Source: Deltaproteobacteria bacterium (lineage in GTDB: Bacteria; Desulfobacterota; Desulfobacteria; Desulfobacterales; C00003060). From it: a stretch of 64,000 nucleotides of DNA. The notes beneath the pieces are model-generated. The model searched no databases and was not told where the DNA came from. It saw only the letters and a list, made by a program, of their open reading frames with translations. The stretch covers positions 1,121 to 65,120 of the forward strand of contig QMMN01000010.1 of NCBI GenBank assembly GCA_003647275.1, read 5' to 3'. Shown here piece after piece: positions 12,179 to 41,812 of this stretch. Position 1 is the first letter of the stretch. Each line of letters opens with the position of its first letter. Both the position numbers and the translations under genes were made by a program.

Positions 12179-12202
12179 AGATTATCCCCCACTTCGTAAC
12201 TG

Positions 12203-12317: not shown

Positions 12318-12324
12318 CCCACTT

Positions 12325-14793: not shown

Positions 14794-14822
14794 TCTCTTT
14801 CTCCCTGCACGAAGTCTACGTT

Positions 14823-14950: not shown

Positions 14951-14959
14951 ACCTTTATA

Positions 14960-16938: not shown

Positions 16939-16965
16939 CCTGGTCCTCTTGTTATTTCATAGCTC

Positions 16966-17096: not shown

Positions 17097-17097
17097 G

Positions 17098-18565: not shown

Positions 18566-19078
18566 CTACCCTGCAAAGCCCTTTGATAGCACAGCCTGAC
18601 CGTATGCCTCCCTTGTCTCCTGGGAAAGCTCGCCCGGTTTGCCAAAACGCAAGGCGTTGGTGGTGCAGGCCGCTACACAGGCCGGTTCCAGTCCCTCATC
18701 GATCCTATCCATACAAAGATCGCATTTGATGGCTTTGCCTGTTTGGGGATTCCACTGGGGAATATTCCAGGGACAGGCCGTGATGCACGCTTTGCAGCCC
18801 GCACATAGATCGGCCACGATGTACACGATGCCGTCTTTGGCTCTCCTTCGGATGGCCTCGGTCGGGCAGGCACCTATGCACCAGGCGTCCTCACAGTGAA
18901 AGCAAGGAAGAAACAGGGCCGACATCCTTGGTACGCCATTTACCAGTTTCGGCCCGAGTATGACGATCTTTCCCAGGCTTGCGCCCTGGGGGACATTGTT
19001 CTTGGCCTTGCAGTGTACCTCACAGGCGTGACAGGCAATGCATCGCTGTGGATCCGTAGAAATACAATAAGCTCCCAT
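18566..19078 (-). CDS. 4Fe-4S multi-cluster ferredoxin subunit (DmsB/PsrB-like) of the molybdopterin enzyme
   Basis: A 170 aa ORF with Cys groups CIACHACEVHC, CFHCEDAWCIGACP, CAGCKACITACP and CDLC...C. Confidence 0.8.
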   Translation of the reverse strand: MGAYCISTDPQRCIACHACEVHCKAKNNVPQGASLGKIVILGPKLVNGVPRMSALFLPCFHCEDAWCIGACPTEAIRRRAKDGIVYIVADLCAGCKACITACPWNIPQWNPQTGKAIKCDLCMDRIDEGLEPACVAACTTNALRFGKPGELSQETREAYGQAVLSKGFAG

Positions 19079-21437: not shown

Positions 21438-21453
21438 AGCAAGAAGGGTGCCA
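21438..21453 (-). promoter_or_regulatory. sigma54 promoter for the molybdopterin-Rnf gene array
   Basis: The minus strand reads TGGCACCCTTCTTGCT, a full match to TGGCAC-N5-TTGCW, about 187 nt upstream of ATG 21251. Confidence 0.75.
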
Positions 21454-22688: not shown

Positions 22689-22697
22689 GGGTAAGCC

Positions 22698-24713: not shown

Positions 24714-24714
24714 C

Positions 24715-26103
24715 ATGAAAGCAAAGCTCTTAGTCGTAGATGACGAAGCAGATATGCTTAACCTGTTGAAGAGGTCCATTGGAGAGGATCTTGACTGCCA
24801 TGTCGAGACCGCCTTAAGTGGTGAGGAGGCCTTTCGCCTCATTGAGCGGAAGCCTTTTGATCTGGCGCTTGTGGACATCCGCATGCCTGGTATGGACGGC
24901 ATTGAGCTTCTTGAACGGATCAAACAGGTTGATCCATGGCTTACGGTGGTCATGATGACAGCATATGGGGTCATAGAGGTTGCAGTGGAGTCGATTAAAA
25001 AAGGGGCCTATGACTTTATTACCAAGCCCTTTGATCAAGATGACCTGATACGCGTTTTGCGAAAGGCTCTGGAGCGGAGCCGGTTGTTGCGCGAAAACTT
25101 AAACCTGCGAAAGCGTATCAAGGAAGAGGACACCTTTCAAAATTTTATTGGTGTTAGTCCAAGGATGCAAAAGGTGTACGACACCATACAGATGCTCAGT
25201 AAAACGGATGTTACCGTGCTGATTACCGGAGAGTCAGGGACCGGCAAGAACTTGGCCGCCAAGGCCATCCATGCCTTGAGTCATCGGAGCGCCAAACCTT
25301 ATGTGCGAGTAAGTTGCCCCACACTCCCGGAAAATATATTGGAAAGCGAGCTTTTTGGCTACAAAAAAGGCGCCTTCACCCACGCCACTCAGGATAAGAA
25401 GGGCCTGTTTGAAGAAGCCCATGGCGGTACCATCTATTTGGATGAAATCGGCGACATCAGCCCCTCCATACAAACCAAACTCCTCCAGGTCCTTGAGGAC
25501 AAGGAAATGAAACCACTCGGTCAGACCAAGACCATCTGTGTGGATGTAAGGGTGATTGCCTCTACCAATAGCGACTTAAGGTCCAAGATGGATACGCGCG
25601 AATTTCGGGAAGACCTTTTCTACCGATTGAACGTGGTTAATGTGGAAATGCCTCCATTGAGGGAACGCAAAGAAGATATCCCCCTTTTGGTGCACCACTT
25701 TTTGGACAAATATTGCACTAAGTTCAACAGGAAGAAAAAGCAGATCTCTTCGGATCTGATGCAGTTGTTCTTGGAACGAAACTGGGAAGGGAATGTCAGG
25801 GAATTAAAAAACACGATTAAGGGTGCTGTAGTAATGGCCCCGGAAGACTGGATTCGAATAGAGGACATAGGATGGCATCGCTTCACAGAATCACAGACTT
25901 CCCCAACAGATGAACTTAGTGCGCTTCCGTATCGTGAGGCGAAACAGCGAGTTTTAAAACGGTTTAATGTAAACTATATCAGCAATGCTCTTCGACAAAC
26001 CAGCGGCAATGTGACCAAAGCCGCCCAACAGTGTGGCCTTGAGCGGCAATCTTTGCAACAAATCATGAAGAAATGTGGGATTAAATCGATTGATTTTCGC
26101 TGA
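24715..26103 (+). CDS. sigma54-dependent response regulator (NtrC family)
   Basis: Receiver domain (LLVVDDE...VDIRMPGMDG), AAA+ domain (GESGTGK, GAFTHA, ESELFGY) and a C-terminal Fis-type HTH. ATG 24715 is 2 nt after the kinase stop; ATG 24697 is an alternative. Confidence 0.88.
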   Translation: MKAKLLVVDDEADMLNLLKRSIGEDLDCHVETALSGEEAFRLIERKPFDLALVDIRMPGMDGIELLERIKQVDPWLTVVMMTAYGVIEVAVESIKKGAYDFITKPFDQDDLIRVLRKALERSRLLRENLNLRKRIKEEDTFQNFIGVSPRMQKVYDTIQMLSKTDVTVLITGESGTGKNLAAKAIHALSHRSAKPYVRVSCPTLPENILESELFGYKKGAFTHATQDKKGLFEEAHGGTIYLDEIGDISPSIQTKLLQVLEDKEMKPLGQTKTICVDVRVIASTNSDLRSKMDTREFREDLFYRLNVVNVEMPPLRERKEDIPLLVHHFLDKYCTKFNRKKKQISSDLMQLFLERNWEGNVRELKNTIKGAVVMAPEDWIRIEDIGWHRFTESQTSPTDELSALPYREAKQRVLKRFNVNYISNALRQTSGNVTKAAQQCGLERQSLQQIMKKCGIKSIDFR

Positions 26104-26532
26104 ACTGCAATAAATTACTTGCACCGCAATGAATGCCTGCTAGAACGACAACCTATTAAAATCATTGAAACTAGGCATATACACCCATCGAAGTGTTATT
26201 GTTGAATGGCACCTGCCTATCGCTTTTCCGCCATATGTTTCAGCCACACCACGCCTGCCAAGCAAAAAACAGCAATAAAATCCATCTGTTATAACCTGCA
26301 TATGCCTTGTCCTAGAGAACAGGCGTTCTTGGCATGCCGCTTGCTGAATAGGCCTGAATAGGCTCAAGTGGAGGTTGGTCAAGTTTGACCGCAAAAGCCG
26401 CACTGTCTGTTTGAGCCTCAAAAGTTATATCAGAAACACAACAGGGCCACCCGGAGCCTTCCCAACGGCAGCAGCTTAAGAAACCAAAAAATCCGTAAAA
26501 TTCTAACGGCTTAGATTGAAGCTGCCTGCAGC

Positions 26533-26614: not shown

Positions 26615-27364
26615 GTGCATGAAATAAATCGATATAGCCCAGGACTATACGAGTTTATAAAACACAAAGTAGAAGTAGAAAATCTCTATGACTACGAGGT
26701 CGCCACCACATTGAAGGTGAGCAATGCATTCATCAGACGTTTACGAAAAACCTTTAGAATTCAAAAGGCCAATGGATTCTTCAGGCGTTTCGAGCGTACC
26801 TACGGCACAGGGTCGATCGACAGGTTCAAAAGGATGATAGAAGATCCGAGAAACTCCCTGTCCGATGTAGCCAAACATTTTGGGTTCTCTAGGGAAAACG
26901 CCCGGATTGTTTACCAGAAGATCTACGGGTACCCTTACACGATAGCCTACAAGAAAAAACTGCAAATAAGGAGGCGTGAAAAGCGAATCGCCATGATGTC
27001 AAAGCGCCTGAAACGCTTAATGAAGGTAAGCAAGAAAATGAAAGCGATGGGTCTTGATTCTCATATTATGCATGAAGGGCCCGTCTACAGGATTATTGTA
27101 AATGGGTACAAGCTGGCATTCAGATGTGCTTCAAAGCCTGCCTTCATAGGCAATAAACAGTACTTTCGTTTCAATAATGCAAAAAGCGCCAACACCGACT
27201 GCGATTTTTTTATCTGTCTTTGCGGAAAAAACATCCATTATATTATACCACGCCACGCCATGCCGAAATACGGTGTTTTTCTCTCCCCTGCGGCAGGTGC
27301 CAACGAAAGCAAGTATGCTCATTTCAGGGAGGCTTGGCACTTACTGGATAAAAAAGGGTTATGA
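26615..27364 (+). CDS. hypothetical basic protein (possible N-terminal HTH repeats; C-terminal nuclease-like fold is speculative)
   Basis: A 249 aa ORF with a GTG start after a GGAG RBS. No motif was recognised with confidence. Confidence 0.5.
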   Translation: MHEINRYSPGLYEFIKHKVEVENLYDYEVATTLKVSNAFIRRLRKTFRIQKANGFFRRFERTYGTGSIDRFKRMIEDPRNSLSDVAKHFGFSRENARIVYQKIYGYPYTIAYKKKLQIRRREKRIAMMSKRLKRLMKVSKKMKAMGLDSHIMHEGPVYRIIVNGYKLAFRCASKPAFIGNKQYFRFNNAKSANTDCDFFICLCGKNIHYIIPRHAMPKYGVFLSPAAGANESKYAHFREAWHLLDKKGL

Positions 27365-27559: not shown

Positions 27560-29218
27560 ATGTTAAGAAAAACGTATCTGTTTATGTGTTTATTTATTGC
27601 CACGACATTCATGGCAGCCACATCCAGTATGGCTGCGACTGCCACCCTGTCCACCAAAAACCCAAAGGCTGGCAGTCGAATCGAAATAAGTGGCAATATC
27701 GCACCCGGGCAAGATCTTTTTGTGGTCGTGTGCTCGGAGAAGATGTTTAAGCCCGCAGATTCCATAGGATCCAAGGAAAAGGCAAAGCTTACCAAAAAAT
27801 TTGGCGACACGGCTATCCCACCAATTTATTATGTTATTACCAGTGCCCCTGAAAAACTGGCCACGCCAAAGGTGGTACGGAAGGGCAAATGGTTCCCGCC
27901 ATTCAGTTGGAATATGGAAGTCAACAAGATCAAGAAATGGGGAGACATACCTGTAGATGCCAAACAAATGCTCGGTCCCATTAACACAAAAAAACAGTGG
28001 GATTTCTTGATCTTCACACATGAAAAGAAATTCGGAATCAATACGATATCCAAAGAAAGGCCCATTGGCGGCGGTAACGCTCGCATGATTATGAGTGGGG
28101 ATGAGAGCAAAAGCTGGAATAAGGGAGTAAGCCTTTCTTTGAATAAGGCCACAGGCGAATACACGGCATCGTTTAATCTGGGCAAAAGGATCCCTCCAAA
28201 CACGCCACTTCTTGTTTACGTAAACGGCGAGAAGCTTGAAAAGTTAAATGTGCAAAAGAGGGGCTTCTTTTTTAAGATCGGTGGGACCTATATGAACCCT
28301 CTGGTGGTGCTCATTGGCGCCTTTTTGATCGGATGCATGTTTGTTATCGTTGGTGCTGCAGGCGGTCTTTTTACGGCAGCTTTTCAGATTACTGTTATCG
28401 GGACAAACGGCATGGTGGGTGTAAATGCAGCAAATGCGGTTAAGCCTACAAACCTGTTTTTGACCCTCTGTTCACCCATCACGGGCGTCTATACCTACTT
28501 TAAAGAGGGCAGGTTGGCCTGGCCCGTGGCCCTGTTCTTTGTGGGCGGCATCCTGCTCGGCGCATTTTGGATCGGCCCGACATATTCTGCCAAATATCTG
28601 CCAATGAAGGCCTACAAGTTTTACCTCGGGTTCTTCTGCCTGATCCTGTTTGCAAAGCTCTGGTATGAATCAACAAAAAGATCGATCGAGAAGAAGAAGG
28701 CGATTAAGGCGATTATTCAAAAGTTTAACGCAGAGATTAAGCAGGCCAAAGAGGAAGGCCGGGCTGCAGAGCTGGGCAAGGTGATTCTTCAAAAAGGGTG
28801 GAGTGCTACAAGGATCGACTTTACCTTCTGGGGTGAGGCGTTTAAGGCCAATCCGCTAGCCCTGTTCTTTGGCGGTATTATTATCGGGTGTATTGCGTCT
28901 GCTTTTGGGGTTGGCGGCGGCTTTATGCTGGTGCCTTTTATGACCACTATTATGGGATATCCTATGTACTTGGCTGTGCCGATATCGCTGTGTGGGACCT
29001 TCGGTACATCTCTTGGCGGCATATCCAGATATATTATCAACGGCTATCAGCCGGATTGGATCATGGCTGCCCTGATCGCAGCAGGTGCGATTATTGGCGG
29101 CAAGACCGGACCAAAGATTCAGAAGAAGCTGCCGGAGGTATTCTTGAAACGGGCGCTGGCCCTTATCCTCTTTATCGTCTTCCTGAAGTACACTAAGGTG
29201 ATCCCGTTTTTGAGATAA
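27560..29218 (+). CDS. TauE/SafE (TSUP) family permease fused to an N-terminal secreted domain of about 230 aa
   Basis: A signal peptide, then a soluble region of unknown fold, then 8 or so TM helices with GAAGG/GVGGG motifs typical of TSUP. AGGAGG RBS. Confidence 0.7.
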   Translation: MLRKTYLFMCLFIATTFMAATSSMAATATLSTKNPKAGSRIEISGNIAPGQDLFVVVCSEKMFKPADSIGSKEKAKLTKKFGDTAIPPIYYVITSAPEKLATPKVVRKGKWFPPFSWNMEVNKIKKWGDIPVDAKQMLGPINTKKQWDFLIFTHEKKFGINTISKERPIGGGNARMIMSGDESKSWNKGVSLSLNKATGEYTASFNLGKRIPPNTPLLVYVNGEKLEKLNVQKRGFFFKIGGTYMNPLVVLIGAFLIGCMFVIVGAAGGLFTAAFQITVIGTNGMVGVNAANAVKPTNLFLTLCSPITGVYTYFKEGRLAWPVALFFVGGILLGAFWIGPTYSAKYLPMKAYKFYLGFFCLILFAKLWYESTKRSIEKKKAIKAIIQKFNAEIKQAKEEGRAAELGKVILQKGWSATRIDFTFWGEAFKANPLALFFGGIIIGCIASAFGVGGGFMLVPFMTTIMGYPMYLAVPISLCGTFGTSLGGISRYIINGYQPDWIMAALIAAGAIIGGKTGPKIQKKLPEVFLKRALALILFIVFLKYTKVIPFLR

Positions 29219-29348: not shown

Positions 29349-29969
29349 ATGGAATACATTGTTGATGCCTTTAATGCCTTTTTTGATCTCCTGTACAATA
29401 ATCTATTAGCCCCTTTCCTCTATTGGATTGCTGCCTTTCTTAACCTTCTCATCTCACCCCTTAGCGCATATCCGCCCCGCACCCAGATCATAGTTGTCTC
29501 GGTTTTTGGCGCTATTGTGTCCAGAATACTTGCAAAAAGATTCAGGGCCAAACAAGAAAAGAGGCTATTGCAAGAATTCAAGGAAAGGCTTTCCACGCTG
29601 GAATACACTAAATATATTGAAGATGATAAATTGAGGAGAGGGTTTAGAAAAGGAATCAATGAGTCGGCTGATGAAGTTTATGAAAAGATCATACTTGATA
29701 AGTTTTTCGAAATGGGCATCTCCTATCTCTTCCCTTTATTCTTTTTCCTCATCTGGTTGCAGTATAGCTTGTTCACTCCTGAAAACCTGAAATCCCTAAC
29801 CGGCTCTCCATACGTATGGGTGACAGACTCCGGATTGAAGCTCAGCGCGGCCTGGGTTTATCTATACTTTTATAATATTTTACTCTTCGGTCTCTGGATA
29901 CTAGAGGTGATTGTCCGAGTTGTTTTAAAGTGGCCAAAAGTAAAAAAACGTAACAGTTTGGCTATCTGA
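29349..29969 (+). CDS. hypothetical membrane protein (TM, basic coiled-coil, 2-3 TM)
   Basis: A 206 aa ORF called from its hydrophobicity pattern only. Confidence 0.5.
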   Translation: MEYIVDAFNAFFDLLYNNLLAPFLYWIAAFLNLLISPLSAYPPRTQIIVVSVFGAIVSRILAKRFRAKQEKRLLQEFKERLSTLEYTKYIEDDKLRRGFRKGINESADEVYEKIILDKFFEMGISYLFPLFFFLIWLQYSLFTPENLKSLTGSPYVWVTDSGLKLSAAWVYLYFYNILLFGLWILEVIVRVVLKWPKVKKRNSLAI

Positions 29970-30256: not shown

Positions 30257-31153
30257 ATGAAGAAACTAGTTAATGTTATGAATATTATTTGCCTGGCCGT
30301 GGTTTTTTGTCTTTCTTTTTCCGTTCTTGCAAAAGCGGACTATAAAATTGGAGTGCTGGCAAAACGCGGCGCCCCCAAATGTATGAAGAAATGGGGTGCT
30401 ACCGGTGCCTATTTGACTGAGAAGCTGGGGACAAAGTTTACTATTATCCCACTTAAATTCACTGCAATTGAACCGTCGGTGAAAGAGGGAAGGATTGACT
30501 TTATGCTGGCAAACTCTGCATTTTACGTGGAGATGGAGAAAAAACACAATGTTTATGCAATTGCAACCCTTATTAATTCGAGAAAAGGCAAGGCGTTGAA
30601 AGAATTTGGTGGCGTTATTTTGACGCGCAAGGACAGCCCGATTCAAGACCTTGCCGGGATTAAAGGGAAGAAGTTTATGTGCGTCAAGTATTCGTCTTTT
30701 GGAGGTGCACACATGGCCTGGCGTCTCCTCTTAGAAAACGGTATCGAGCCCAAGACGGACTGCGCTGCCTTCTTAGAGGGAGGGAAGCATGACAACGTGG
30801 TGCTGGCGGTAAAAAACGGCACGGCTGATGTAGGAACGGTAAGAAGCGACACCCTTGAGAGAATGCAGGACGAAGGTAAAATCAAGATGAGTGACTTCAG
30901 GATTATTCATCAGATCAAGGACGATTTTCCTTTTGTTCACAGTACCCGTTTATATCCTGAATGGCCCATGGCTGCCTGCGCTAAAACAGATAAGGGCTTG
31001 GCCCAAAAGGTGGCAGATGCGCTGATTGCCATGCCAAAAGATGCCACGGCCGCCAAGACCGCCAAGATCGTGGGCTGGACCCAACCGGCCGATTATAACA
31101 GCGTGATAGAATGCCTTAAGACCATTAGATACGGTGTTTTTGGAGGAAATTAA
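30257..31153 (+). CDS. PhnD-family periplasmic substrate-binding protein (second copy)
   Basis: Signal peptide present. It has the same family pattern as 21753..22688 and lies directly upstream of a chemoreceptor. Confidence 0.65.
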
Positions 31154-31154
31154 T

Positions 31155-32813
31155 ATGTTATCAAAAATAGGCATTGCGGGTAAGTTCATATTGATTAATT
31201 CCCTTGTAATCATTGTCTTGCTGGCGATTATTACCTTTGTGACCGTTACAACTGCCAATAAGTATCAGTCAAAGCAGGCCAATGTCTTCATTAAGTCGCT
31301 GAAAGCTGAGCAGTCCAATGAAGAGAAGTTGCTCCGGCAAGCCCTTTTTCAGAAGGGTGAATCGATTACAGCCTTGTTGGCCCAGACTGCATCAAGCTTA
31401 ATTATTGGCTATGACTTTGATACCCTAGGCCGGTTAGCCCAGAGTGGGAGCCGTGACCAGGACATTGTATTCGTTACTTTTTACGATAAGGATGAAAAAC
31501 CGATTACTGAACAGGTGAGTCAACAAAGTGGTATCGAAACCATCAAGCAAGAAGTGTTGTTTGAGGAAGAGTTGGTTGGTTTTGTTGAGGTGGGTCTCGA
31601 TTTTGCCTCTGTTAAGAACAATATAAACGAGGTGTCTGCTCGCATTGATAAAATGATACAGGATACCAGTAAGGCTAAGGAAGAGGCATTGAGATCCATT
31701 ATAAACCTGATTGTTGTTTATGCAGCAGTGGGAGTCGTTGCACTTTGTCTGGCTATTTATTTCTCGCTTTCATATATTGTAACTAAGCCGATCAATGGCA
31801 CTATCGATATGCTTAAAGATGTTGCTGAAGGTGAAGGTGATCTCACTGCCCGCCTCGCGGTTAAGAGTAAGGATGAGGTGGGAGAACTATCAAATTGGTT
31901 TAACATATTTGTCGAGAAGCTCCAAGGAATGATTAAAGATATTGCAGAAAACGCCAAAACCTTGAGTACCTCCTCCAGCAACCTTTCCAACCTTTCCGGG
32001 CAGATGTCAGATGGGATCAACAACGTGTCCTCAAAATCGAACATCGTGGCCACAGCAGGTGAAGAGATGAGTTCCAACATGCACTCTGTTGCTACTGCCA
32101 TGGAACAGGCTGCCACCAATGTGAACATGGTGGCAACAACGATTGAAGAGATAGCTGCCACCGTTAACGAGATTGCACAAAATTCCGAGAAGGCACGCGC
32201 CATAACAGGTGAGGCCGTTTCCCAGTCCCAGCGCGCTTCCGACAGGGTCGAAGAACTTGGAAAAGCTGCTCAGGAAATAGGTGAGGTCACCGAAACCATT
32301 ACCGAGATCTCTGAGCAGACAAATCTTCTGGCCTTGAATGCCACCATTGAGGCAGCCAGAGCCGGAGAGGCTGGCAAGGGCTTTGCCGTAGTGGCCAACG
32401 AGATTAAGGAACTGGCCATGCAGACCGCTGAAGCAACCCAGGAAATCAAAGAAAAGATTGACGGTATTCAGGGCTCGACTGCGGGAACGATAACGGAAAT
32501 TGAACAAATCACAAAGATAATCAACGATGTCAATGAAATCGTGACTACCATTGCCGCGGCCGTGGAGGAACAATCTGCGACAACCAAAGAGATCGCAAGC
32601 AATGTGACCCAGGCATCCCAGGGGATTCAGGAAGTCAATGAGAATGTGGCGCAGAGTTCTATGGTTTCCGCAGAGATTGCCAAAGACATTGCTGATGTCC
32701 ACAAGGAAGCCAATGAAATGTCCAACAGCAGTTCGCAGGTCAAGTTGAGTGCAGAAGAATTATCAAAACTAGCTGAACAGTTAAAGGATCTGGTGGGAAA
32801 ATTCAAGGTATAG
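31155..32813 (+). CDS. methyl-accepting chemotaxis protein
   Basis: ATG 31155 follows a GGAGGA RBS. It has 2 TM helices, a HAMP domain and the signalling hairpin [35 protein letters not shown]. Confidence 0.88.
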
Positions 32814-32874
32814 TAGAGCCGATTGGTTGAAAATGCACAGGGAGCGCTAACCCTGCAGCAAGCCGCAGGAAGCT

Positions 32875-33033
32875 TCAATTGTTGGGTGGAAATGGCTGGA
32901 GCCGTAGCCCATGAAGTTTTTCTCTTGCCCGATGTTCTTCCCGCAGCTGAACGTGAGCGGTGATATCTCTTATGGTTCCTATGATGAAGTTTACTTTCCC
33001 TTTATGGTCAAAAACTGCAACCGGTGAGACCAT
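32875..33033 (-). pseudogene. possible remnant of a PAS-domain sensor gene (52 codons)
   Basis: The translation MVSPVAVFDHKGKVNFIIGTIRDITAHVQLREEHRA... resembles the end of a PAS domain plus linker. There is no upstream coding continuation. Confidence 0.25.
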
Positions 33034-33231
33034 CACTTCCAAATACTTTTCCTCTCTGCCCCTTCTATAGCAATTCCACCCTGCTCAGCTACTGCCATAA
33101 TACTTGCGAAATTCGGGGTTAACCGATTGGGTGGATCGTCTGCCTGGGGTGAACCTATTGTCCTGAGGGAGTAGATTTTTTCTTCGTGATGGGTTATCAT
33201 ACTAAAAAAATGGTCTCAAGGGAATGCCCTT

Positions 33232-35802
33232 ATGCTTATAACGAGCTTGTTTAAACATTGGACCTATCAAGTATTTTCCCCGGGAACTATCCTCAGGGAA
33301 AAATACGAAGCATTTAAATCGCTGTTAAGATATGACAAGCGAGCCCATGAACTGATGGCAGAACTGGAGGAGATATATTATAACCAGATCAAAGTTGACT
33401 TTAAGGTAATTGAGGATAAATATGATAAGCTCTCCTGTTGTGTTTCCAACATGATAGAAAATATTTCCAAGATGTGCCCTACATGTTATCCTGGTTTGAG
33501 AGACTATTTCAAGAAATTCGATTTTTATATAAGGTTCATGCTTGCCCCACCAGAGTTTAATTTTTCGCCTCCCTTTACCATTCCACTGAAGGAGATATCT
33601 CCGGATAGCCACACGTTGGTGGGCGGGAAGGCTCTGAACTTGGCTATCATTGAAAGAGATCTTCGGCTTCCCATACCAAATGGGTTTGTTATTACAACCA
33701 ATGCCTTCTATTACTTTATTGAGTTTAATAATCTCAGGAAATCAATCGATGAGCGGCTCTCCAAACTCGACCTCAACTCTACGGCTTCCTTAGATGCCGT
33801 CTCCCACGAGTTAGTGGACATCATGATAAACGCCCAGATTCCTCCAGGCATCGAAGAAGCCATCCTCGATGCCTTCGAGAAACTTCAAGGGGCCACTCGC
33901 AAGGATGTGAGAATAGCCATGCGTAGTAGCGCCGTAGGTGAGGATATGCGGTCGTCATTTGCGGGACAGTATCGTACACTTTTAAATGTAAAAGAAGACG
34001 GTATCCTCGATGCTTACAAAGAAGTCATTGCTAGCAAATATACGCCAAGGGCCCTTTACTACAGGATCAACTACGGACTTTCGGATATTGAAACGCCCAT
34101 GGCCGTTGTAGCCCTTGAAATGATTGATCCAGAGGCAAGCGGGGTGATGTATACTCAAGATCTTGAGGATCCAGAGTCAAAAGCTTTGACCATTCATGCC
34201 ATTTGGGGCCTTGGAGAATTGTTGGTAGGCGGGGAGGTCTCACCCGACGTAATTAGTGTAGCAAAAGAGGAAAAGCCAAGGATTGTCCAGAAAAAAACAG
34301 GGGTCAAATCCAAACAGATGATTTTTTCCCAAAATAATGCAACTGAAATTATTCCTGTTCATGATGACAAAAAGTGTTCCCCCTCACTGGAAGATGCCCC
34401 TGTGCTAATTCTGGCCGAGTGGGGCATAAAACTCGAAAGATTTTACAAAGCACCACAGGATATTGAATGGTGTATGGATAACAAAGGGCATCTTTTTCTC
34501 CTTCAATCAAGACCCCTCAGGATCGAAGAAGCGGGCCATGGGGCCCTGACATGTAAGTTTGAAAACATCAAAAATCCCGTACTTGTTTCAGGTGGAGAAA
34601 GGGCTAGCTCTGGAATCGGAGCGGGGAAGGTTTTCAAGATCGACCGCGAATCCGACCTCAAAGATCTTCCTGAAGGTGCGGTCCTGGTGGCCAGGCATGC
34701 TTCACCCCATTATGTCAAGGTGATGGACAAGCTAAACGCAGTCGTAACCGATATGGGAAGCACTGCTGGGCATTTTGCATCTGTTGCACGCGAATTTGGT
34801 GTTCCCACTTTAGTGAACACCAATGTTGCCACTGCCAACTTGCCCCAGGGGAGAGAGGTTACCGTGTATGCAGAGGGCAAAGTCGTCTATGATGGGATCG
34901 TTGAATCCATGCTGGCGAGTCCCTGTGCCCGACGAAACCTTATATCAGACAGCCCCTTTAGCCGCAAGCTGAAATATATCATGAGCTTTATCTCACCTTT
35001 GAACCTTGTTGATCCTAAGGCTTCCTCTTTTGCTCCAGAAGGATGCAGGTCTCTTCACGATATCATCAGGTTCTGCCATGAAAAGGCTGTGCAGGAGATG
35101 TTTTCCATTGGACAGAAGCGCTCAAGTAAGATAAAGGGCGCCAAAAAGCTCCTTTCAGAGATACCTGTACTGTTTTATCTGATGGATGTAGGTGATGGAT
35201 TGAAAAAAAAGCGGGCGGATGAGAAGGAGGTAAGAATTGATAATATTGTGAGCGTCCCCATGAAGGCGCTATGGAAAGGTCTGAATCACCCTGAAATACG
35301 CTGGTCAGCGTTTACCCATTTTGACTGGGCAGAGTTTGACAATATTGTCATGAGCGGCGGAGTCATAAGCAAGGAATCACCACTCCTTGCAAGCTATGCT
35401 GTGCTGTCGAGCGATTATCTTAATCTTAACATGCGATTCGGCTATCATTTTGTCATCCTGGACACAATCTGTCGAGATCAATCAGAAGACAACTACATTC
35501 TGTTTAGGTTCTCTGGTGGAGGGGCCGATTTTTACAGAAGGTCTTTGAGGGCCAGTTTCTTGGAAGAGGTGTTGCAACGCCTTGGTTTTGAGGTGGATAA
35601 AAAGGGTGATCTCGTAGATGCCCAGCTGAAGGGGGCTGACAGGAAGACAATGGAACAGAAATTGGACATGATTGGACGCCTTCTTGGCGCAACGAGACTG
35701 ATGGATATGTACCTCAAGGATGTGTCAATGGTGGAAAGTTTTGTTGAAGATTTTATGAGTGGACGATATCATTTCGCTTCCGCGGAAAAAACTACCTGTT
35801 AG
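33232..35802 (+). CDS. PEP-utilizing-enzyme-like dikinase (PpsA-type ATP-grasp + swivel His domain) with non-canonical N- and C-terminal domains
   Basis: PPDK_N-type motifs (VGGKALNL, MRSSAVGEDMRSSFAGQY, DIEWCMD). The mobile domain reads VTDMGSTAGHFASVAREFGVPT. The last 300 aa or so lack the PEP/pyruvate TIM-barrel motifs. Confidence 0.75.
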   Translation: MLITSLFKHWTYQVFSPGTILREKYEAFKSLLRYDKRAHELMAELEEIYYNQIKVDFKVIEDKYDKLSCCVSNMIENISKMCPTCYPGLRDYFKKFDFYIRFMLAPPEFNFSPPFTIPLKEISPDSHTLVGGKALNLAIIERDLRLPIPNGFVITTNAFYYFIEFNNLRKSIDERLSKLDLNSTASLDAVSHELVDIMINAQIPPGIEEAILDAFEKLQGATRKDVRIAMRSSAVGEDMRSSFAGQYRTLLNVKEDGILDAYKEVIASKYTPRALYYRINYGLSDIETPMAVVALEMIDPEASGVMYTQDLEDPESKALTIHAIWGLGELLVGGEVSPDVISVAKEEKPRIVQKKTGVKSKQMIFSQNNATEIIPVHDDKKCSPSLEDAPVLILAEWGIKLERFYKAPQDIEWCMDNKGHLFLLQSRPLRIEEAGHGALTCKFENIKNPVLVSGGERASSGIGAGKVFKIDRESDLKDLPEGAVLVARHASPHYVKVMDKLNAVVTDMGSTAGHFASVAREFGVPTLVNTNVATANLPQGREVTVYAEGKVVYDGIVESMLASPCARRNLISDSPFSRKLKYIMSFISPLNLVDPKASSFAPEGCRSLHDIIRFCHEKAVQEMFSIGQKRSSKIKGAKKLLSEIPVLFYLMDVGDGLKKKRADEKEVRIDNIVSVPMKALWKGLNHPEIRWSAFTHFDWAEFDNIVMSGGVISKESPLLASYAVLSSDYLNLNMRFGYHFVILDTICRDQSEDNYILFRFSGGGADFYRRSLRASFLEEVLQRLGFEVDKKGDLVDAQLKGADRKTMEQKLDMIGRLLGATRLMDMYLKDVSMVESFVEDFMSGRYHFASAEKTTC

Positions 35803-35851
35803 ATGTAAACGCTTTGATTCTCCCCTAGTAAAAGTGGAAAAGCTATAGGAT

Positions 35852-36943
35852 ATGCCCGGATATCAACTTACATGGATAACTAAAGATTTGGCCGTTGGCT
35901 ATGCGCCCATGTCATATGCTGAACTCGAATCTATAAGAACACAGGGGATTGATGCCATTGTCAACCTTTGTGCAGAATTCTGCGATCTGCATGAGATTGA
36001 GGAAAAGACAGGCTTTGAGGTCTACTATCTTCCCATTCCGGATGAGAGCGCACCGAACATGGAGGATATGGAAAAGGCCCTTGACTGGCTGGATGAGGCT
36101 ATCTATTTGGGCAAAAAGGTCTTGATTCACTGCCGTCATGGCATCGGGAGAACAGGGACCTTTGTGATCTCTTATTTGCTAAGGAGAGGGCTGGGCTTAA
36201 AGGTTGCATCCAAAAGGATGAAACACACTCGCGCAAGCCCGACTGGTTACAGTCAGTGGAGGCTGTTGAAAAAATATGGGAAGAAATCGGGCACCTTAAA
36301 GATACGAGAGCCTTCCCTTGAAAGCAGAAATGTTGTTGATTTAAGCGCATATTTTGCAGAATATGAGGCATTGGTTCAAAAAATAGATGAAGATATCAAA
36401 AAAGCAAGCAAAACGCTTGGAAATATCCCAAAGTGTGGGTTTGAAACAGATGAGTGCTGCTTTCAATATTTCGACTTGCAATTGATCGAGGTCATTTACA
36501 TAAATAACAAAATGAACAAGACCCTTAAAAGCGATGTAAGGCAAGAAGTCATCCACAAAGCCGTGGAAGTATCCAAAAAGACAAGAGAGATAAAACGTCG
36601 GTTGTGTGAAAAAGGAGACGATTGTGACGATGGCAAAAACGCTCTGGTTGATGCTTACACGAAGGAGAACATTTTGTGCCCGTTAAATAGAGAGTCAAGG
36701 TGCAGCCTGTACGAATACAGGCCCATAAGATGCAGGTTGCACGGTGTTCCCAACAATTTGGTTGATTTTGATCTGATAAATAACGTGCTTTTTGACATCT
36801 CCAAAAACATCTTCCTTGCATTTTCCGGGTATTTTCTTGAAGAAAACCCCTTGTTCTTTTCTTTGGCCGATACTGTTTCAGGAAAGTTCGTTCAGGATTA
36901 CTTCCATTACTTGGCTTATTTGGCAACCAACTCAAATCATTAG
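35852..36943 (+). CDS. dual-specificity (Cys-based) phosphatase fused to a YkgJ/UPF0153-type Cys-rich metal-binding domain
   Basis: P-loop VLIHCRHGIGRTGT (HCxxGxxR[ST]). The C-terminal half carries CGFETDECC... and CPLNRESRCSLYEYRPIRCRLHG. Confidence 0.75.
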   Translation: MPGYQLTWITKDLAVGYAPMSYAELESIRTQGIDAIVNLCAEFCDLHEIEEKTGFEVYYLPIPDESAPNMEDMEKALDWLDEAIYLGKKVLIHCRHGIGRTGTFVISYLLRRGLGLKVASKRMKHTRASPTGYSQWRLLKKYGKKSGTLKIREPSLESRNVVDLSAYFAEYEALVQKIDEDIKKASKTLGNIPKCGFETDECCFQYFDLQLIEVIYINNKMNKTLKSDVRQEVIHKAVEVSKKTREIKRRLCEKGDDCDDGKNALVDAYTKENILCPLNRESRCSLYEYRPIRCRLHGVPNNLVDFDLINNVLFDISKNIFLAFSGYFLEENPLFFSLADTVSGKFVQDYFHYLAYLATNSNH

Positions 36944-37299
36944 TCTTTTAACACGGTTGCCACTTTTTCCTCCAGTTCGTCCTTGTCTATCGGCTTGACA
37001 CAGTACTCGCTGGCTCCCAGCTTCAAAGATTGCCGGGCGGTCTCCAGAGTGGGATAACCGGTCAGCATAATCGCGCGAATTGACGGATCTGTTTTCTTAA
37101 GTTCCTCTAGTACTTCAACACCGCTCATCTTTTTTAACTTGATATCCAAAATGGCCAAGTCTATCTCGTTGGATTGGGCACAATGCAACGCCTCTTCCTC
37201 CTCTGTAAAGGCAAACACCTCGTGTCCTTTTTTTTGTAAAATCTTCTTGATGAGTATGACCGCATCTAACACATCATCCAACACCAATATTTTTGCCAT
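36940..37299 (-). CDS. single-domain response regulator
   Basis: MAKILVLDD..., LDIKL and CVKP, a receiver-domain pattern. It overlaps the upstream kinase stop by 26 nt. Confidence 0.85.
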   Translation of the reverse strand: MAKILVLDDVLDAVILIKKILQKKGHEVFAFTEEEEALHCAQSNEIDLAILDIKLKKMSGVEVLEELKKTDPSIRAIMLTGYPTLETARQSLKLGASEYCVKPIDKDELEEKVATVLKD

Positions 37300-39346
37300 C
37301 CCCTGTTTCCCCCTTCTTGTTTTCGAGGCCTGTAATTTCTGACACAGGTAGATATATTATAAAAACAGCGCCCCCCGCATCTGCTCCCTCTTTGTCTTTT
37401 GAGAACAAGGGTGGGCTCTGGACTTCTATTCTTCCTCCATGCTCCTGAATAATGCCGAAGGTAACCGACAATCCGAGACCAGTCCCTTTACCAACCGCCT
37501 TGGTGGTAAAAAAGGGATCGAAGATCTTATCTATCTTTTCGGGTGGAATGCCACGGCCGGTATCGGCCATAGAGATCACTAACTCACTATTTTTCTTGTC
37601 AAAACTGGTTGTTATAGTAATGGTTCCATCCGTGCCGATCGCATCATGGGCATTGTTAAGCAGGTTAACGAAGACCTGTTTGAGCTTCTCTTTGTCCCCC
37701 TTAACAGGAGGCAAATTGGCATCATAATCTCTTTTGATTGTCACTCTCTCTAACTTGAAAGTATGCTCCACAACAGATACCACTTCTTCAATGCATTGGT
37801 TTATATCGACCGAGGTCACAGTACTTTCCGTATGCCTGGAAAATCTCAGAAGGTCAGCCACAATCCTGCGGCATATCTTACTTTGCTTTTCTATGGTCTG
37901 AAGCCCTTCATAGATATCTCCACCCTCTGGCGCTTCCTCCAACAATAGTTGGGCATAGCCTAAGATAATCCCAATAGGCGTGTTAATCTCATGGGCGATA
38001 CCAGCGGCCAATTGTCCGATAGATTCCATCTTCTGAGATTGAACCAGTCTCGCCTGGATTTCTTTGAGTTCGGTTATATCTCTTCCACTCCAAAGAATAC
38101 CGGTTACATTTCCATCAGTATCATATACGGGTATCTTAACCACGTGGAACCACTTCTTGCCTTTGGCAGCCTGTACTTCGTCCTGCCTTTCAAACGGTTT
38201 ACCGGTCTCCATAACCCTCAAGTTTTCCTCATGGTTCTTCTCAGCAAGATCCCTAGGGAAAAGTTCAAAATCTGTCTTGCCGATAACATCTTTTTCTTCC
38301 TTAGAAATAAACTTACAGAATGCCTTATTAACAGCCCGGTATATTGATTCCCGATCTTGCAGGCAAACAATGTCAGGCGTTGCATCGAGAATGGTTTGAA
38401 GGAGCTGACTCTGCTGCCTCAATCTCTCTTCCGTTTCTTTCAGACCAGAAATGTGTTCATTGAGGGACAGGGCCATGACGTCAAAGGATTCAGCAAGATG
38501 CTGAATCTCATCCCCTGCATTTTTCCTGTAAACCTTACATTTTCGACAAGTGTCAATCTTCTGCGCATAGTCCCCTGCAACACAGGTTGGACACATGGTG
38601 CCAGCAAGATACCAGCAGCGACGGCGGGTATCGCCATAAGCCGGACACTGCTTCTTGTCGCACGACATGATTTCCCAGCAGTCTTGTTTCAACAAGGGGG
38701 CTGTTTGAGCGTCGAGATTCCCCTTGACAGCCTCTTCTGATGAACGACGGAGGATATTGATCCTTTTGGTCACCGTGCGGGCAAAGAATGTTCCCACAAA
38801 CCCTGCTATGATGATAACAAACCCGGTGGCTAAAAAGATGGTTCGCAAAAGTCTATTGATCGTTTCTTGTACTTTGGTCCTTGAAATGCCTATGTGTACT
38901 GCGCCAAATCGATCGCCGCCGATAAAAATAGGAACAGCAAAATCATATATAAGTTCCTTTCCTGTATTCAGAAGCTTTACATTAAAGTTTTTTTCAAGGG
39001 GCACGATGTTTGCCATTTTCAGCTCAACTGGAAAGCCCCCCTTAAACGAATGAACCAAGGTCTCCTTACCCTTATCGAGAATGAAAGTATAAGAAACATC
39101 GTCACTGAGGCGAGCGACTTCATCTAATAGATCATTCATCCGAAGGAAATCCATGGCCAAGATAGGTTCCCTTATGCGGGCAGCAAGATTTACAGCAATA
39201 GCAATCCCTCTCTTCTTATTTTCTTCTAAAAGTGAGTCTGTTACTATTTCACTCACGATCACCGATAAAACAATTCCAAACATAAGGAGTATAGAGATGA
39301 TCACAGTATAGATTTTAGTCCTAAAACTAAATTTTAATGTTATCAT
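37274..39346 (-). CDS. sensor histidine kinase, paralog of 22698..24713 (TM/periplasmic, HAMP, two-CW Cys module, PAS, HisKA, HATPase)
   Basis: [34 protein letters not shown]...CRKCKVYRK, the H-box [10 protein letters not shown], and DTGRGI...GTGLGLS. Confidence 0.85.
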
Positions 39347-39413: not shown

Positions 39414-39944
39414 TTAAAGTTTTTTTATTTTGGCATGGCTTCTACGCTCGCGCTTGGATGGACGGCGTGATGGTCCCTTCTTTTTTGTAGTGGGTATCCA
39501 GCTTATGTCCTCTTCTTCGCTAAAATCGGCAGGGGGAATGAACTCTCCATAAATGGCCATCGTCATCTTGTTTTCAAACTCGATTGAGTCTATGGTTGCC
39601 GATCCGTGTTTGGCAGCAAAATGGGCAATCTCCTTATCAGAAGTGACCACAACGACCCGCTCCCGTTCCCGGGTTATGATGCGCTTAATAACACTATCAG
39701 CCAACTCCCCTGGACGCGAAAAGACAACATGGATTCCCTTCCAGCGGGTCCTGGCTTCCATCAAACTGCCCGCACCTGCCCCATCAAAAACCACTGTCAT
39801 GGGATAGCGTTTCACTTTTTTATAAGAAACCAGCCGCTGCAGAAGGGCCTCCCGCCCTTCTGCCAGACTGCGGTGTTCAATGATGCTCAAGGTAGGAGAC
39901 TGACGGATCAGGTTGTATCCATCTATCACAATGTGAACAGACAT
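39414..39944 (-). CDS. NYN-domain protein (YacP/Rae1-like putative RNase)
   Basis: HIVIDGYNLI, VVFDGAG and VVVVTSDKEI. Confidence 0.7.
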   Translation of the reverse strand: MSVHIVIDGYNLIRQSPTLSIIEHRSLAEGREALLQRLVSYKKVKRYPMTVVFDGAGAGSLMEARTRWKGIHVVFSRPGELADSVIKRIITRERERVVVVTSDKEIAHFAAKHGSATIDSIEFENKMTMAIYGEFIPPADFSEEEDISWIPTTKKKGPSRRPSKRERRSHAKIKKL

Positions 39945-39953
39945 GAGAAGTTG

Positions 39954-40814
39954 TCACGAGGCCTTCAACCGGGCAATCAGCCGGCCCAGGTCATCATGGC
40001 TGTAAAACTCAATCTCAACCTTTCCCCGCTTTCCCCGGCGTATGATACGCACCTTGGTGCCAAGATGCCGGGTCAGCTCATCGGCCAGGTTCTCCACATA
40101 GATGTCCTCTGACGAGAGGGCCTTTGCCTTCGAAGCCTTGGGCTTGCGGGTTTTGAGTTTTTTGACCAGGACCTCTGCGGCCCGAACAGAAAGATTCCCA
40201 GAAACGATGCGGCGCCAAGCCTCTTTTTGCTGAGCAGGAGTCTCAGCACCTAAAAGCGCCCTCGCATGGCCCATGGTTAAGGTATTGTTGACAATATCAG
40301 CCTGGATCGGCTTGGGCAGATTCCGAAGCCGCAAAAAATTGGCCACCGTAGAGCGATCTTGGCCCACACGCTTGGCAACCCCTTCTTGGGTAAGGCCAAA
40401 TTCCTTGATCAGGCGATAATAGGCCTCGGCCTTCTCCACAGGATTCAGGTCTTGCCGTTGGATATTTTCAACCAAGGCCATCTCCAGCATTTCGGCCCCG
40501 GAGACATCCTTGACGACCACTGGAACCTGTTTGAGCCCGACCACCCGGGCTGCCCGCCAGCGGCGCTCTCCAACAATCAATTCATAGCCCGTGGAGGCTG
40601 GGCGCACAACAAGGGGCTGAATAACCCCTTGCTCCTTGATGGACACCCCCAAATCCCTTAGCTCCTGTTCGGTGAAGCGCCGCCTCGGCTGATATGGATT
40701 GGGCCGGATGGCATTAATATCACAGTAGAAAAAAGATCTCGGCTCCAGATCTGATGTGTCTACGTCAGCTATGAGGGCATCGAGTCCTCGACCTAACACC
40801 TGTTTTTTAGGCAT
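39954..40814 (-). CDS. parB: chromosome partitioning protein ParB
   Basis: LGRGLDALI, the ParB box GERRWRAA, and an HTH region. ATG 40814 overlaps the parA end. Confidence 0.9.
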   Translation of the reverse strand: MPKKQVLGRGLDALIADVDTSDLEPRSFFYCDINAIRPNPYQPRRRFTEQELRDLGVSIKEQGVIQPLVVRPASTGYELIVGERRWRAARVVGLKQVPVVVKDVSGAEMLEMALVENIQRQDLNPVEKAEAYYRLIKEFGLTQEGVAKRVGQDRSTVANFLRLRNLPKPIQADIVNNTLTMGHARALLGAETPAQQKEAWRRIVSGNLSVRAAEVLVKKLKTRKPKASKAKALSSEDIYVENLADELTRHLGTKVRIIRRGKRGKVEIEFYSHDDLGRLIARLKAS

Positions 40815-41583
40815 GGCGTGTCTCCCCACCGTTCATGATCTCTTGGGCCAGTGCCAGATAGCTCTTGGCTCCCCGGGATGTGATATCGTAAAGGAGTATG
40901 GGCTTTCCAAAACTGGGGGCCTCTCCCAGTCTCACGTTTCTCGGGATACGTGTCTTGAAAACCAGATTCTTAAAGTATTTCTCAGCCTCTTCGGCAACCT
41001 GATGCGAAAGGTTGTTTCGCCTGTCAAACATGGTCAGGAGCACCCCCTCCATGACAAGGCCGGGGTTCAGGTGCCTCTTGATGCGTCTGAAGGTTTGAAG
41101 GAGCTGGCTTAGACCTTCTAACGCATAAAATTCGCACTGCAGCGGAATCAACAAGGTGTGGGCCGCGGTCAGGGCGTTTACCGTAAGAAGGTTTAAGGAT
41201 GGAGGGCAATCAAGCAGGATGTAAGCAAAATCATCAGCAAGGGGTCTTAGGAGGTCCCGGAGGAAGGTTTCCCGATTTGGCTGTGAAATCAACTCCACCT
41301 CAACGCCAATCAGGTCAATACACGCAGGAATAACTTTTAGATAAGTCAAGTCCGTATCTACCACAAGACCTTCAACGGGATCCTTTTGAATCAAACCGTG
41401 ATAGAGGTTCTTTGTGAGTTCCGCCTTGTTGATACCCACGCCAGTTGTAGCGTTTCCCTGGGGGTCGCAGTCAACGAGCAGGGTTTTGCGCTCGGCCACA
41501 GCAAGGGCAGCGCCAAGGTTCACTGCGGTCGTGGTTTTGCCTACGCCCCCCTTTTGATTGGCTATACAAATAATGTGACTCAT
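40807..41583 (-). CDS. parA: chromosome partitioning ATPase ParA/Soj
   Basis: MSHIICIANQKGGVGKTTT, the deviant Walker A motif. The internal ATG 41583 is preferred. Confidence 0.9.
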   Translation of the reverse strand: MSHIICIANQKGGVGKTTTAVNLGAALAVAERKTLLVDCDPQGNATTGVGINKAELTKNLYHGLIQKDPVEGLVVDTDLTYLKVIPACIDLIGVEVELISQPNRETFLRDLLRPLADDFAYILLDCPPSLNLLTVNALTAAHTLLIPLQCEFYALEGLSQLLQTFRRIKRHLNPGLVMEGVLLTMFDRRNNLSHQVAEEAEKYFKNLVFKTRIPRNVRLGEAPSFGKPILLYDITSRGAKSYLALAQEIMNGGETRHA

Positions 41584-41812
41584 GGGGAAAATTTGTATTA
41601 CGACAGCCAGATACAAAATAAGCTGTCATTTTTAGCAACAAATACAGTAAAATTTTCTACCACAAAATCGGCTTTTTTCAAAGTCATAACCCCTTGGTCG
41701 AAAAAAAGGGGGCCCCCAAGTTTTTCTTGATTTGTTCGTTGCCCGCGATTATGTTAAAAATTAAAGGGTATTTAGCGTATCTTGAGGGAGGCCCGTACCT
41801 GACCAGCGTACC

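Follow-up and report, generated by a model that had tools for sequence, protein, structure and literature searches.

A histidine-swivel dikinase with a novel C-terminal domain and an obligate phosphatase-fold partner in a sulfur-oxyanion gene neighbourhood

Dikinases that combine an ATP-grasp domain with a mobile, phosphorylatable histidine (swivel) domain transfer phosphate to pyruvate, rifampin, glucans, phenols or prodiginine precursors. Pyruvate is the acceptor of PpsA, the phosphoenolpyruvate (PEP) synthase (EC 2.7.9.2), whereas rifampin phosphotransferase (RPH), the prodigiosin ligases PigC and RedH, HpeI and phenylphosphate synthase use the same chassis on other acceptors. Partnership between such a dikinase and a second protein is also established: the glucan, water dikinase (GWD) of plants adds phosphate that the dual-specificity phosphatases (DSPs) SEX4 and LSF2 remove, laforin acts with the same logic in animals, and the activity of PPDK and PpsA is set by reversible phosphorylation through a dedicated partner, PDRP or PSRP (DUF299). 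Here we describe a locus in a 64,000-nucleotide stretch of Desulfobacterales contig QMMN01000010.1 (the whole stretch is referred to as the window, and coordinates are positions within it), where a gene on the forward strand (33232..35802) encodes an atypical His-swivel dikinase, given the working name DIK, and is followed directly by a gene for a DSP. Full-text literature searches found no published description of the DIK family. What is new here is that a known catalytic chassis carries a new, presumed acceptor domain, is joined to an obligate phosphatase-fold partner and lies in a sulfur-oxyanion context.

A PpsA-like chassis with a C-terminal domain of its own

Both open reading frames (ORFs) were found where a first-pass annotation of this DNA had placed them, encoding 856 and 363 amino acids (aa) and lying 49 nt apart, and they are real genes rather than chance ORFs because each has more than 100 orthologues at 61-80% identity. 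DIK itself is identical (100%) to JRJ42_05225 (P0001), a protein from a metagenome-assembled genome (MAG), and its relatives are named 'pyruvate, water dikinase' or 'PEP/pyruvate-binding domain-containing protein' in databases. The architecture proposed at first pass, a PpsA/PPDK ATP-grasp and phospho-His core between an N-terminal extension of ~120 aa and a C-terminal region of ~300 aa, is borne out by Pfam and by AlphaFold2 (AF2). Even at E<=10, Pfam returned neither a family for aa 1-120 or aa 560-856 nor a match anywhere in DIK to the PEP-utilizers_C barrel (PF02896). The motif GSTAGHFASVAREFGVPT is present, with G513-H514 invariant across 55 aligned orthologues; the catalytic His sits in the sequence GSTAGH, with no conserved Thr or Ser two residues ahead of His514.

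Comparison with curated families places the protein close to PpsA over part of its length. The best NCBIfam match is PpsA (PRK06464, E 9e-106), over model positions 8-468 only, and DIK falls below the cut-offs of both PEP synthase models (354.8 against 598 bits for PRK06464, 349 against 740 for TIGR01418), of the PPDK equivalog TIGR01828 (59 against 843) and of rifampin phosphotransferase NF041857 (222.8 against 999, with only the ATP-grasp and His parts matching); it is far under every NCBIfam equivalog cut-off for PpsA, PPDK, RPH and PigC. A full-length AF2 model built on the 55 orthologues (predicted local distance difference test score, pLDDT, 81; predicted template modelling score, pTM, 0.73) gave the same picture, as Foldseek matches in the PDB to PpsA 2ols (E 1e-24, 461 columns), RPH, HpeI and PPDK run through the ATP-grasp and swivel domains only, and the ATP-grasp domain superposes well on RPH 5hv6 (TMt 0.88) and 9goj. 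Over aa 117-560 the nearest relative by sequence and fold is PpsA, which likewise places the ATP-grasp ahead of the swivel His; DIK differs from it in its unrelated alpha/beta C-terminal domain (C-domain), its extra helical N-terminal domain and its obligate link to a phosphatase. The arrangement also departs from that of RPH, whose acceptor domain comes after the ATP-grasp and before a C-terminal His domain, whereas the His domain of DIK precedes the unmatched domain. No partner phosphatase was encountered for RPH, PigC, RedH or the phenol-type dikinases, although no search aimed at one was made.

The C-domain, modelled alone (aa 560-856, pLDDT 70), folds in AF2 as antiparallel beta-hairpins packed on long helices and not as a (beta/alpha)8 barrel. 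Foldseek with this isolated model reached at best E 0.06 in the PDB with no barrel among the matches, a profile of 14 diverse members searched against PDB sequences reached at best E 0.5, and Pfam matched the domain in none of those 14 members. By Foldseek and PDB profile no part of the acceptor domains of RPH, PigC, RedH or the phenol-type dikinases matches it, and resemblances to YbjN/T3SS-chaperone-like proteins and to the C-Ala domain of AlaRS were discounted (TM about 0.2-0.33, E>0.05). The absence of a PEP/pyruvate TIM barrel, noted at first pass, therefore holds on all four lines of evidence: Pfam, AF2 topology, Foldseek and the PDB profile search each reject a divergent barrel. DIK has thus lost the TIM barrel, and a novel, conserved domain stands in its stead.

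Searched exhaustively with HMMER, 1.84 billion cluster representatives (50% clustering) yielded 1237 with this domain (619 at E<=1e-30), nearly always at positions ~550-850 of proteins with the same architecture. Residues conserved in at least 90% of 119 representatives comprise H609, D610, R613, H616, E617, S721 and Y729, together with FGYH 736-739, D744, N754, FxGG 760-763, R773 and D825. Judged by their identity, these suggest a site for catalysis or ligand binding more than a surface for docking, and the C-domain is presumed to be the acceptor or catalytic domain. The N-terminal extension is modelled as four long helices (including 20-50, 57-81 and 88-104) and keeps Y25, F28, L32, D35 and E46 family-wide; its possible role as a phospho-His module resembling histidine-containing phosphotransfer (HPt) domains was rejected, as H39 is invariant in close orthologues and not across the family.

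The phosphatase partner and its linkage to the dikinase

Co-occurrence of the two genes in other genomes, which the first-pass annotation had named as a check on its proposal, was found throughout. Our survey covered one genome per species for 185,579 species, detected relatives in 187 and kept 80 loci, of which 79 are labelled Desulfobacterales, Thermodesulfobacteriota or 'delta proteobacterium', including that of the cultured Desulfosarcina alkanivorans PL12 (L078). The sole exception, a locus labelled as a Gammaproteobacteria MAG with 65% identity to DIK (L018), lies on a 5-kb contig at ~1x coverage and may be mis-binned. A phosphatase gene stands immediately downstream on the same strand in 74 of the 74 loci whose contig extends past the dikinase; the contig stops at the dikinase in the remaining 6 of the 80. 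In two metagenomic proteins, P0285 (1252 aa) and P0329 (1205 aa), a single chain unites the dikinase with the DSP and the Cys-rich region. The intergenic gap in the window (35803..35851, both genes on the forward strand) holds no terminator-like site, and a search of 32700..37400 for signals bounding the transcription unit gave no sigma-54 promoter, sigma-70 promoter or terminator above chance. By linkage and by fusion the two genes form an obligate module, and the pair is a real and widespread enzyme module.

The DSP P-loop HCRHGIGRTG recognized at first pass belongs to a well-supported catalytic domain, with 53.5 bits against DSPc (PF00782) at a gathering score of 33.5. Across 49 orthologues C94, R100, the putative general acid D64 and a second cysteine, C40, are invariant, and the closest solved structures are archaeal-type protein tyrosine phosphatases (PTPs; 9e9l, 5z59), DUSP10/23 and PTEN. 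From the invariance of C94, R100 and D64 and the activity of its nearest solved PTP and DSP relatives, the phosphatase is predicted to be catalytically intact. Matches to the Tc-R-P and PTP-SAK models prompted us to consider a defence or toxin system, which was rejected: neither DIK nor the phosphatase matched any family among the PADLOC defence-system models, and the neighbourhood is of a housekeeping type.

Fusion of this phosphatase to a YkgJ-type Cys-rich domain had also been proposed. The invariant cysteine pattern stands in the 49 orthologues (C195, C202, C203, C276, C284 and C294, with R290-P291), closed by the stretch CPLxxxxxCxLYxxRPxxCR in the C-terminal half of the protein. The window protein itself scores only 9-10 bits against PF03692 (YkgJ), under the gathering score of 23, but PF03692 is the sole non-phosphatase family that recurs among the orthologues (weak matches in 22 of 49, best E 0.0015), so that the name 'YkgJ-like' is reasonable without being proven. 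Of the signature that we take to define PF03692, an N-terminal CxxCxxCC and a C-terminal CP..(5)C.(I/L)Y..RP..CR, the second half is present and invariant (CPLNRESRCSLYEYRPIRCR), and the first reads CGxExxxCC followed by an insert of ~70 aa. The Cys-rich extension occurs in 52 of the 74 loci; the other 22 have a short DSP of ~150 aa only.

Two further kinds of gene were seen beside the module. The start of a major facilitator superfamily (MFS) transporter gene overlaps the stop of the short DSP (155 aa) in Desulfosarcina alkanivorans PL12 (L078 8605..10318), and an MFS gene likewise lies 3' of the PP2C partner in locus L090. Genes for CBS-domain proteins recur near or just upstream of the dikinase (L085 8441..9810, L086 8736..9143 and the Desulfobacula-type cluster c10).

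A paralogous subfamily, found mainly in Nitrospirota, Thermodesulfovibrionales and Dissulfurispiraceae MAGs, shows how far the partner can vary. Its members are longer (~1040-1085 aa), with the same C-domain followed by a ConA-like beta-sandwich; the tail of P0301 matches Glyco_hydro_59_C at 30.1 bits, with a gathering score of 27. Directly upstream of the paralog in L081-L084 and L088 lies a gene of ~150-240 aa for a protein of the LMWPc family, with the fold of low-molecular-weight protein tyrosine phosphatases (LMW-PTPs), often with adjacent stop and start codons, and in P0492, P0495, P0497 and P0508 the LMWPc domain is fused to the dikinase N-terminus. All seven LMWPc partners examined have the P-loop CxGNxxRS, an (L/I)CxDxxxxCP pair and a DP/DDP motif, and keep the equivalents of the arsenate reductase (ArsC) triad Cys10, Cys82 and Cys89 plus Asp105. 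They align best with the thioredoxin-coupled arsenate reductases 1jl3 and 1ljl (E about 1e-20), at scores below the ArsC equivalog cut-offs (85-90 bits against 174-215), and the pair adjoins a gene for thioredoxin in L088 or for a thioredoxin-reductase-like protein in L081. Unlike ArsC, this partner is fused or coupled to a dikinase, and no ars genes were present in the loci read; in the window the partner is a DSP instead. A third kind of partner is PP2C, which neighbours the dikinase in L088 and L090 and forms one chain with it in P0434.

Because partners vary between DSP, ArsC-type LMWPc and PP2C, what is constant in the family is a dikinase bearing the C-domain together with a partner of phosphatase fold, whose kind is interchangeable. 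This also separates the system from PDRP (DUF299), whose fold none of these partners has, just as the regulatory Thr position is not conserved in DIK. In L088 a canonical PPDK/PpsA with the PEP-utilizers_C barrel (9727..12495) adjoins the family member, which shows that the two are separate functions in one genome. One ConA-type paralog gene, in L089 (6368..8705), is divergent to genes for ChrB_N, ChrB_C and a chromate transporter, chromate being another tetrahedral oxyanion.

Genomic setting of the module

The coordinates of the module, its domains and the surrounding genes are collected in Table 1.

Table 1. Features of the dikinase-phosphatase module and its surroundings in the window
Feature	Coordinates	Strand	Basis
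DIK ORF, 856 aa	33232..35802	+	ORF list; Pfam finds PPDK_N and PEP-utilizers only
Family-specific N-terminal extension of DIK, aa 1-120	33232..33591	+	AF2 helices; no Pfam family
ATP-grasp nucleotide-binding domain, aa 128-433	33613..34530	+	PPDK_N (PF01326) E 7e-89
Mobile phospho-His domain, aa 479-546	34666..34869	+	PEP-utilizers (PF00391) E 1e-16
Catalytic His514 codon	34771..34773	+	Inside mobile phospho-His domain
C-terminal alpha/beta domain, aa 560-856	34909..35799	+	No match in Pfam, PDB sequences or Foldseek
DSP with Cys-rich domain, 363 aa	35852..36943	+	ORF, Pfam, 49-sequence alignment
DSP catalytic domain, aa 8-145	35873..36286	+	DSPc, Tc-R-P and PTP-SAK matches
Cys94 codon in P-loop HCRHGIGRTG	36131..36133	+	Alignment
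Divergent YkgJ/CxxCxxCC-like Cys-rich region	36434..36733	+	Invariant Cys pattern; weak recurrent PF03692
Stand-alone receiver, 119 aa	36940..37299	-	Response_reg E 4e-25
Sensor histidine kinase: sCache_3_2, Cys-rich CW segment, PAS, HisKA, HATPase	37274..39346	-	Pfam
Chemoreceptor	31134..32813	+	MCPsignal; overlaps 30257..31153 binding-protein gene by 20 nt
TtrS-like periplasmic binding protein	30257..31153	+	Phosphonate-bd; NCBIfam TtrS periplasmic part E 4.5e-40
TauE-family permease with long N-terminal domain	27560..29218	+	TauE E 2e-32
Unannotated genes flanking TauE	26615..27364 and 29349..29969	+	ORFs
One-mismatch sigma-54 site	26330..26345	+	Upstream of 249-aa/TauE operon
Second binding protein, sCache/PAS kinase and sigma-54 activator	21753..26103	+	Pfam
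Exact sigma-54 consensus TGGCACCCTTCTTGCT	21438..21453	-	Only zero-mismatch match in window; ~190 nt upstream of PhsA-like gene
Cytoplasmic PhsA/PsrA-like molybdopterin oxidoreductase	19164..21251	-	Pfam; PDB 2vpw E 5e-108
4Fe-4S subunit	18566..19078	-	Pfam
Rnf-type genes (RnfC/D/G/E)	13217..18519	-	Pfam

Upstream of the module the window holds genes that point to the sensing, transport and reduction of a sulfur-type oxyanion. The PhsA-like enzyme has no signal region, the alignment to 2vpw starting after the signal region of that protein, and scores 562 bits against NCBIfam PhsA (cut-off 694). The binding protein encoded at 21753..22688 (forward strand) is TtrS/PhnD-like. The sigma-54 sites that flank the binding-protein, kinase and activator genes suggest that these belong to one regulon.

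Elements of this neighbourhood travel with the dikinase in two phyla, and the full set is present in the window. The TauE gene and a gene for a ~200-aa membrane protein recur beside the dikinase (clusters c7, c8 and c12; L085 and L087), with TauE and companion membrane proteins at L001, L015, L070-L077, L085 and L087. The same type of PhsA-like enzyme flanks the DSP-type pair in Desulfobacula-type loci and L087 and the paralog in Nitrospirota operons, where three loci share the order TauE, TauE, molybdopterin oxidoreductase, 4Fe-4S, Fer2/Fer4, GltD-like NAD(P)H subunit, LMWPc, dikinase. Genes of the kinds in this operon also surround the DSP-type pair in the Desulfobacula-type loci and L087. 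Other genomes have the GltD-like NAD(P)H module where the window has the Rnf genes, which suggests that electrons can enter one and the same reductase through modules that replace each other.

A 2026 proteomics study of thiosulfate disproportionation found a cytoplasmic PhsAB-like enzyme, TauE, the companion membrane protein and a 'PEP synthase' to be more abundant (PMC13490349). The last of these, ~10-fold up in Dissulfuribacter thermophilus and listed by the TauE genes, is a lead only, as a candidate member of the DIK family (PMC13490349). Its locus tags conflict as well: A0A1B9F8F1 is given as DITHS69_1988 in Table 2 of that paper and as DITHS69_1161 in its text, and only the former would put it beside the TauE genes (PMC13490349).

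On the other side of the module the first-pass annotation had seen a receiver and a two-CW kinase encoded convergently; Pfam confirms both genes, and the two CW motifs of the kinase were found by reading. The phosphatase and receiver genes overlap by 4 nt (36940..36943) at their stop ends, leaving no space for a terminator. At 72-90% identity, receiver orthologues are better conserved than the dikinase; they occur in 35 of the 39 long-phosphatase loci with room for one (adjacent in 25) against 2 of 15 short-DSP loci, counts taken without phylogenetic correction. The kinase is conserved together with the receiver and, at other loci, together with a PhnD/TtrS-like binding protein. The Cys-rich extension of the phosphatase thus tracks the receiver and kinase. 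The receiver itself was considered as a general acceptor of the dikinase and rejected, since short-DSP loci and the paralogous subfamily are without it. The window has two paralogous sCache_3_2/PAS/HisKA kinases, one in the 21753..24713 region (forward strand) with the sigma-54 activator and one at 37274..39346 (reverse strand) with the receiver. Directly after the latter come genes for YacP-like NYN, ParB-like and ParA-like proteins (39414..41616, reverse strand), whose position beside the module is not conserved elsewhere.

Weighing the possible functions

Our favoured reading, which we judge to stand an even chance of being right, is that the two proteins form a coupled phosphorylation/dephosphorylation module tied to sulfur-oxyanion metabolism. 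As expected of an intact PpsA chassis, the ATP-grasp domain would load the beta-phosphate of ATP onto His514 with release of AMP and Pi, and the swivel would carry this phosphoryl group to the C-domain, for transfer to an acceptor there rather than to pyruvate in a TIM barrel, a transfer that we infer because the C-domain occupies the same slot as the pyruvate barrel and carries invariant polar residues. The Cys94 phosphatase would then remove or otherwise consume the phosphoryl group; the obligate linkage and the fusions suggest that it acts on the phospho-compound made by the dikinase, and that the two enzymes may share a substrate. The outcome would be a controllable phosphorylation cycle and not a one-way pathway, with the YkgJ-like domain, the receiver and the sensor kinase possibly adjusting the balance of the two activities. 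Since the neighbourhood would serve to sense, transport and reduce a sulfur-type oxyanion, the likeliest acceptor is some small anion that arises in this process as a metabolite or intermediate, and not pyruvate, a glucan or an antibiotic. The pairing hypothesis of the first-pass annotation is supported to this extent, as neither a failure of the two genes to co-occur nor a pyruvate-binding C-domain was found; its parallel with the glucan dikinases and laforin is retained as an analogy only, a His-dikinase adding phosphate and a DSP removing it.

Several observations weigh against this reading. Co-expression of a kinase and a phosphatase for one small molecule would amount to futile cycling if neither enzyme were regulated. 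The ArsC-type redox triad of the paralog partners and the nearby thioredoxin and thioredoxin-reductase-like genes point to thiol-redox chemistry and not to plain hydrolysis, and DSP, LMW-PTP and PP2C are classical protein-phosphatase families, which favours a protein target. The ConA-type paralog in L089 has no adjacent phosphatase. As for the sulfur-oxyanion connection, PhsA-like and TauE genes lie near the module in many loci and not in all, and no sigma-54 promoter was found ahead of the dikinase that would place it in a shared regulon.

A rival reading starts from the thiol features: a tetrahedral oxyanion or a sulfur species would be phosphorylated by the dikinase to a mixed phospho-anhydride, and the partner would be a thiol reductase or transferase and not a hydrolase. 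It would resolve this intermediate by forming first a Cys-S-X adduct and then a disulfide, which would be recycled by thioredoxin or by the Cys-rich domain. Sulfate activation as adenosine 5'-phosphosulfate (APS) or its 3'-phosphorylated form (PAPS) and selenide, water dikinase offer analogues for the first step, ArsC or PAPS reductase for the second. Such a route, unlikely in our estimate, would account for the P-loop Cys, Cys82/Cys89 and Asp105 kept in 7 of 7 ArsC-like partners, the thioredoxin-related genes of L088 and L081, the second invariant cysteine (C40) and six-Cys YkgJ-like domain of the DSP, the oxyanion-themed neighbours (TauE, the PhsA/PsrA-like reductase, TtrS-like proteins and ChrA/ChrB in L089) and the position of the Nitrospirota pair at the end of an eight-gene metabolic operon. 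It is hard to reconcile with PP2C, a metal-dependent protein phosphatase for which thiol chemistry is impossible, as a recurrent partner, with the lack of the Cys-rich domain in 22 of the 74 DSP partners and with the Sat/Apr route already present in these organisms; to our knowledge no phospho-oxyanion intermediate of this kind exists in biology. The specific form of the proposal, that DIK is an 'oxyanion (or sulfur-species), water dikinase' whose phospho-activated inorganic intermediate is reduced or transferred by the partner, here the DSP with its Cys-rich domain and elsewhere an ArsC-type protein with thioredoxin, and feeds the cytoplasmic PhsAB-like reductase and the TauE system, we regard as somewhat less probable still. 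Reduction of phosphate to phosphite on the partner cysteine was set aside as energetically too unfavourable, by reasoning rather than computation. The membership of the partners in protein-phosphatase families can instead be taken at face value: their substrate may be a protein, either the dikinase itself, from which they would clear inhibitory or misdirected phospho-Ser/Thr/Tyr much as PDRP serves PPDK and PpsA, or a third protein, with the acceptor of the dikinase a separate matter. All three partner families being classical bacterial protein phosphatases, the co-occurrence of PP2C and LMWPc in the L088 dikinase operon, which suggests different roles, and the physical complex suggested by fusion and translational coupling all speak for this. 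DIK, however, has no conserved Thr or Ser two residues before His514, the position regulated in PPDK and PpsA, a protein phosphatase has no need of an ArsC-type triad and no candidate third protein is kept in all loci, so that we consider it a minority possibility.

The remaining explanations are much less probable. A glycan, water dikinase working with a laforin- or SEX4-like phosphatase, so that a storage or surface polysaccharide is transiently phosphorylated, would suit the ConA-like lectin/glucanase beta-sandwich tail of the paralogs (P0301, Glyco_hydro_59_C) and the kinase-plus-DSP logic known from plants and animals. GWD, however, has starch-binding modules and a His domain N-terminal to its nucleotide-binding domain; the domain order of DIK is PpsA-like, Pfam finds a carbohydrate-binding module in neither window protein and no glycogen or polysaccharide gene is among the annotated neighbours, which leaves this reading very unlikely. 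We think it no more credible that phosphate passes from His514 to the P-loop Cys of the partner as from EIIA to EIIB of the phosphotransferase system (PTS), the partner acting as a phospho-carrier to a transported substrate. EIIB presumably resembles the LMW-PTP fold, both main subfamilies invariably have a P-loop Cys protein as partner and permease genes (TauE, MFS) lie nearby; these are not PTS permeases, though, hydrolases and reductases are the enzymes that typically have a conserved general-acid Asp such as D64 or its Asp105 counterpart, and PP2C partners do not fit. That DIK is an ordinary divergent PEP synthase mis-read as atypical has the database names in its favour and is the least probable of all: PEP-utilizers_C is missing, every PpsA and PPDK equivalog cut-off is failed, the C-domain is not a barrel, and a true barrel-bearing PPDK stands beside the family member in L088. 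Without the barrel and below all curated cut-offs, DIK should not be called a PEP synthase, and this identity is excluded. In sequence and fold it derives from PpsA, and like RPH and GWD it would put the chassis to use on another acceptor, but it belongs to neither of those two families.

Taken together, a family that numbers at least 1237 clusters at 50% identity has exchanged the acceptor domain of a familiar chassis for one without a known relative, and a phosphatase-fold partner travels with it in nearly every locus examined. The label 'pyruvate, water dikinase' is wrong for these genes and distorts the reconstruction of gluconeogenesis in the MAGs that carry them. The carriers are sulfate reducers and sulfur disproportionators, and the neighbours of the family, the cytoplasmic PhsAB-like reductase and the TauE permeases, have been implicated by recent proteomics in thiosulfate disproportionation. 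Identification of the acceptor would establish an enzyme activity and a protein domain that are both new, and could fill a regulatory or catalytic gap in anaerobic sulfur cycling. Should it prove inorganic, the system could count as categorically new; if DIK is indeed an oxyanion dikinase, it would add a third way of activating oxyanions to adenylylation (APS) and selenophosphate synthesis, and would give sulfate-reducing and sulfur-disproportionating bacteria an activation step not recognized before.

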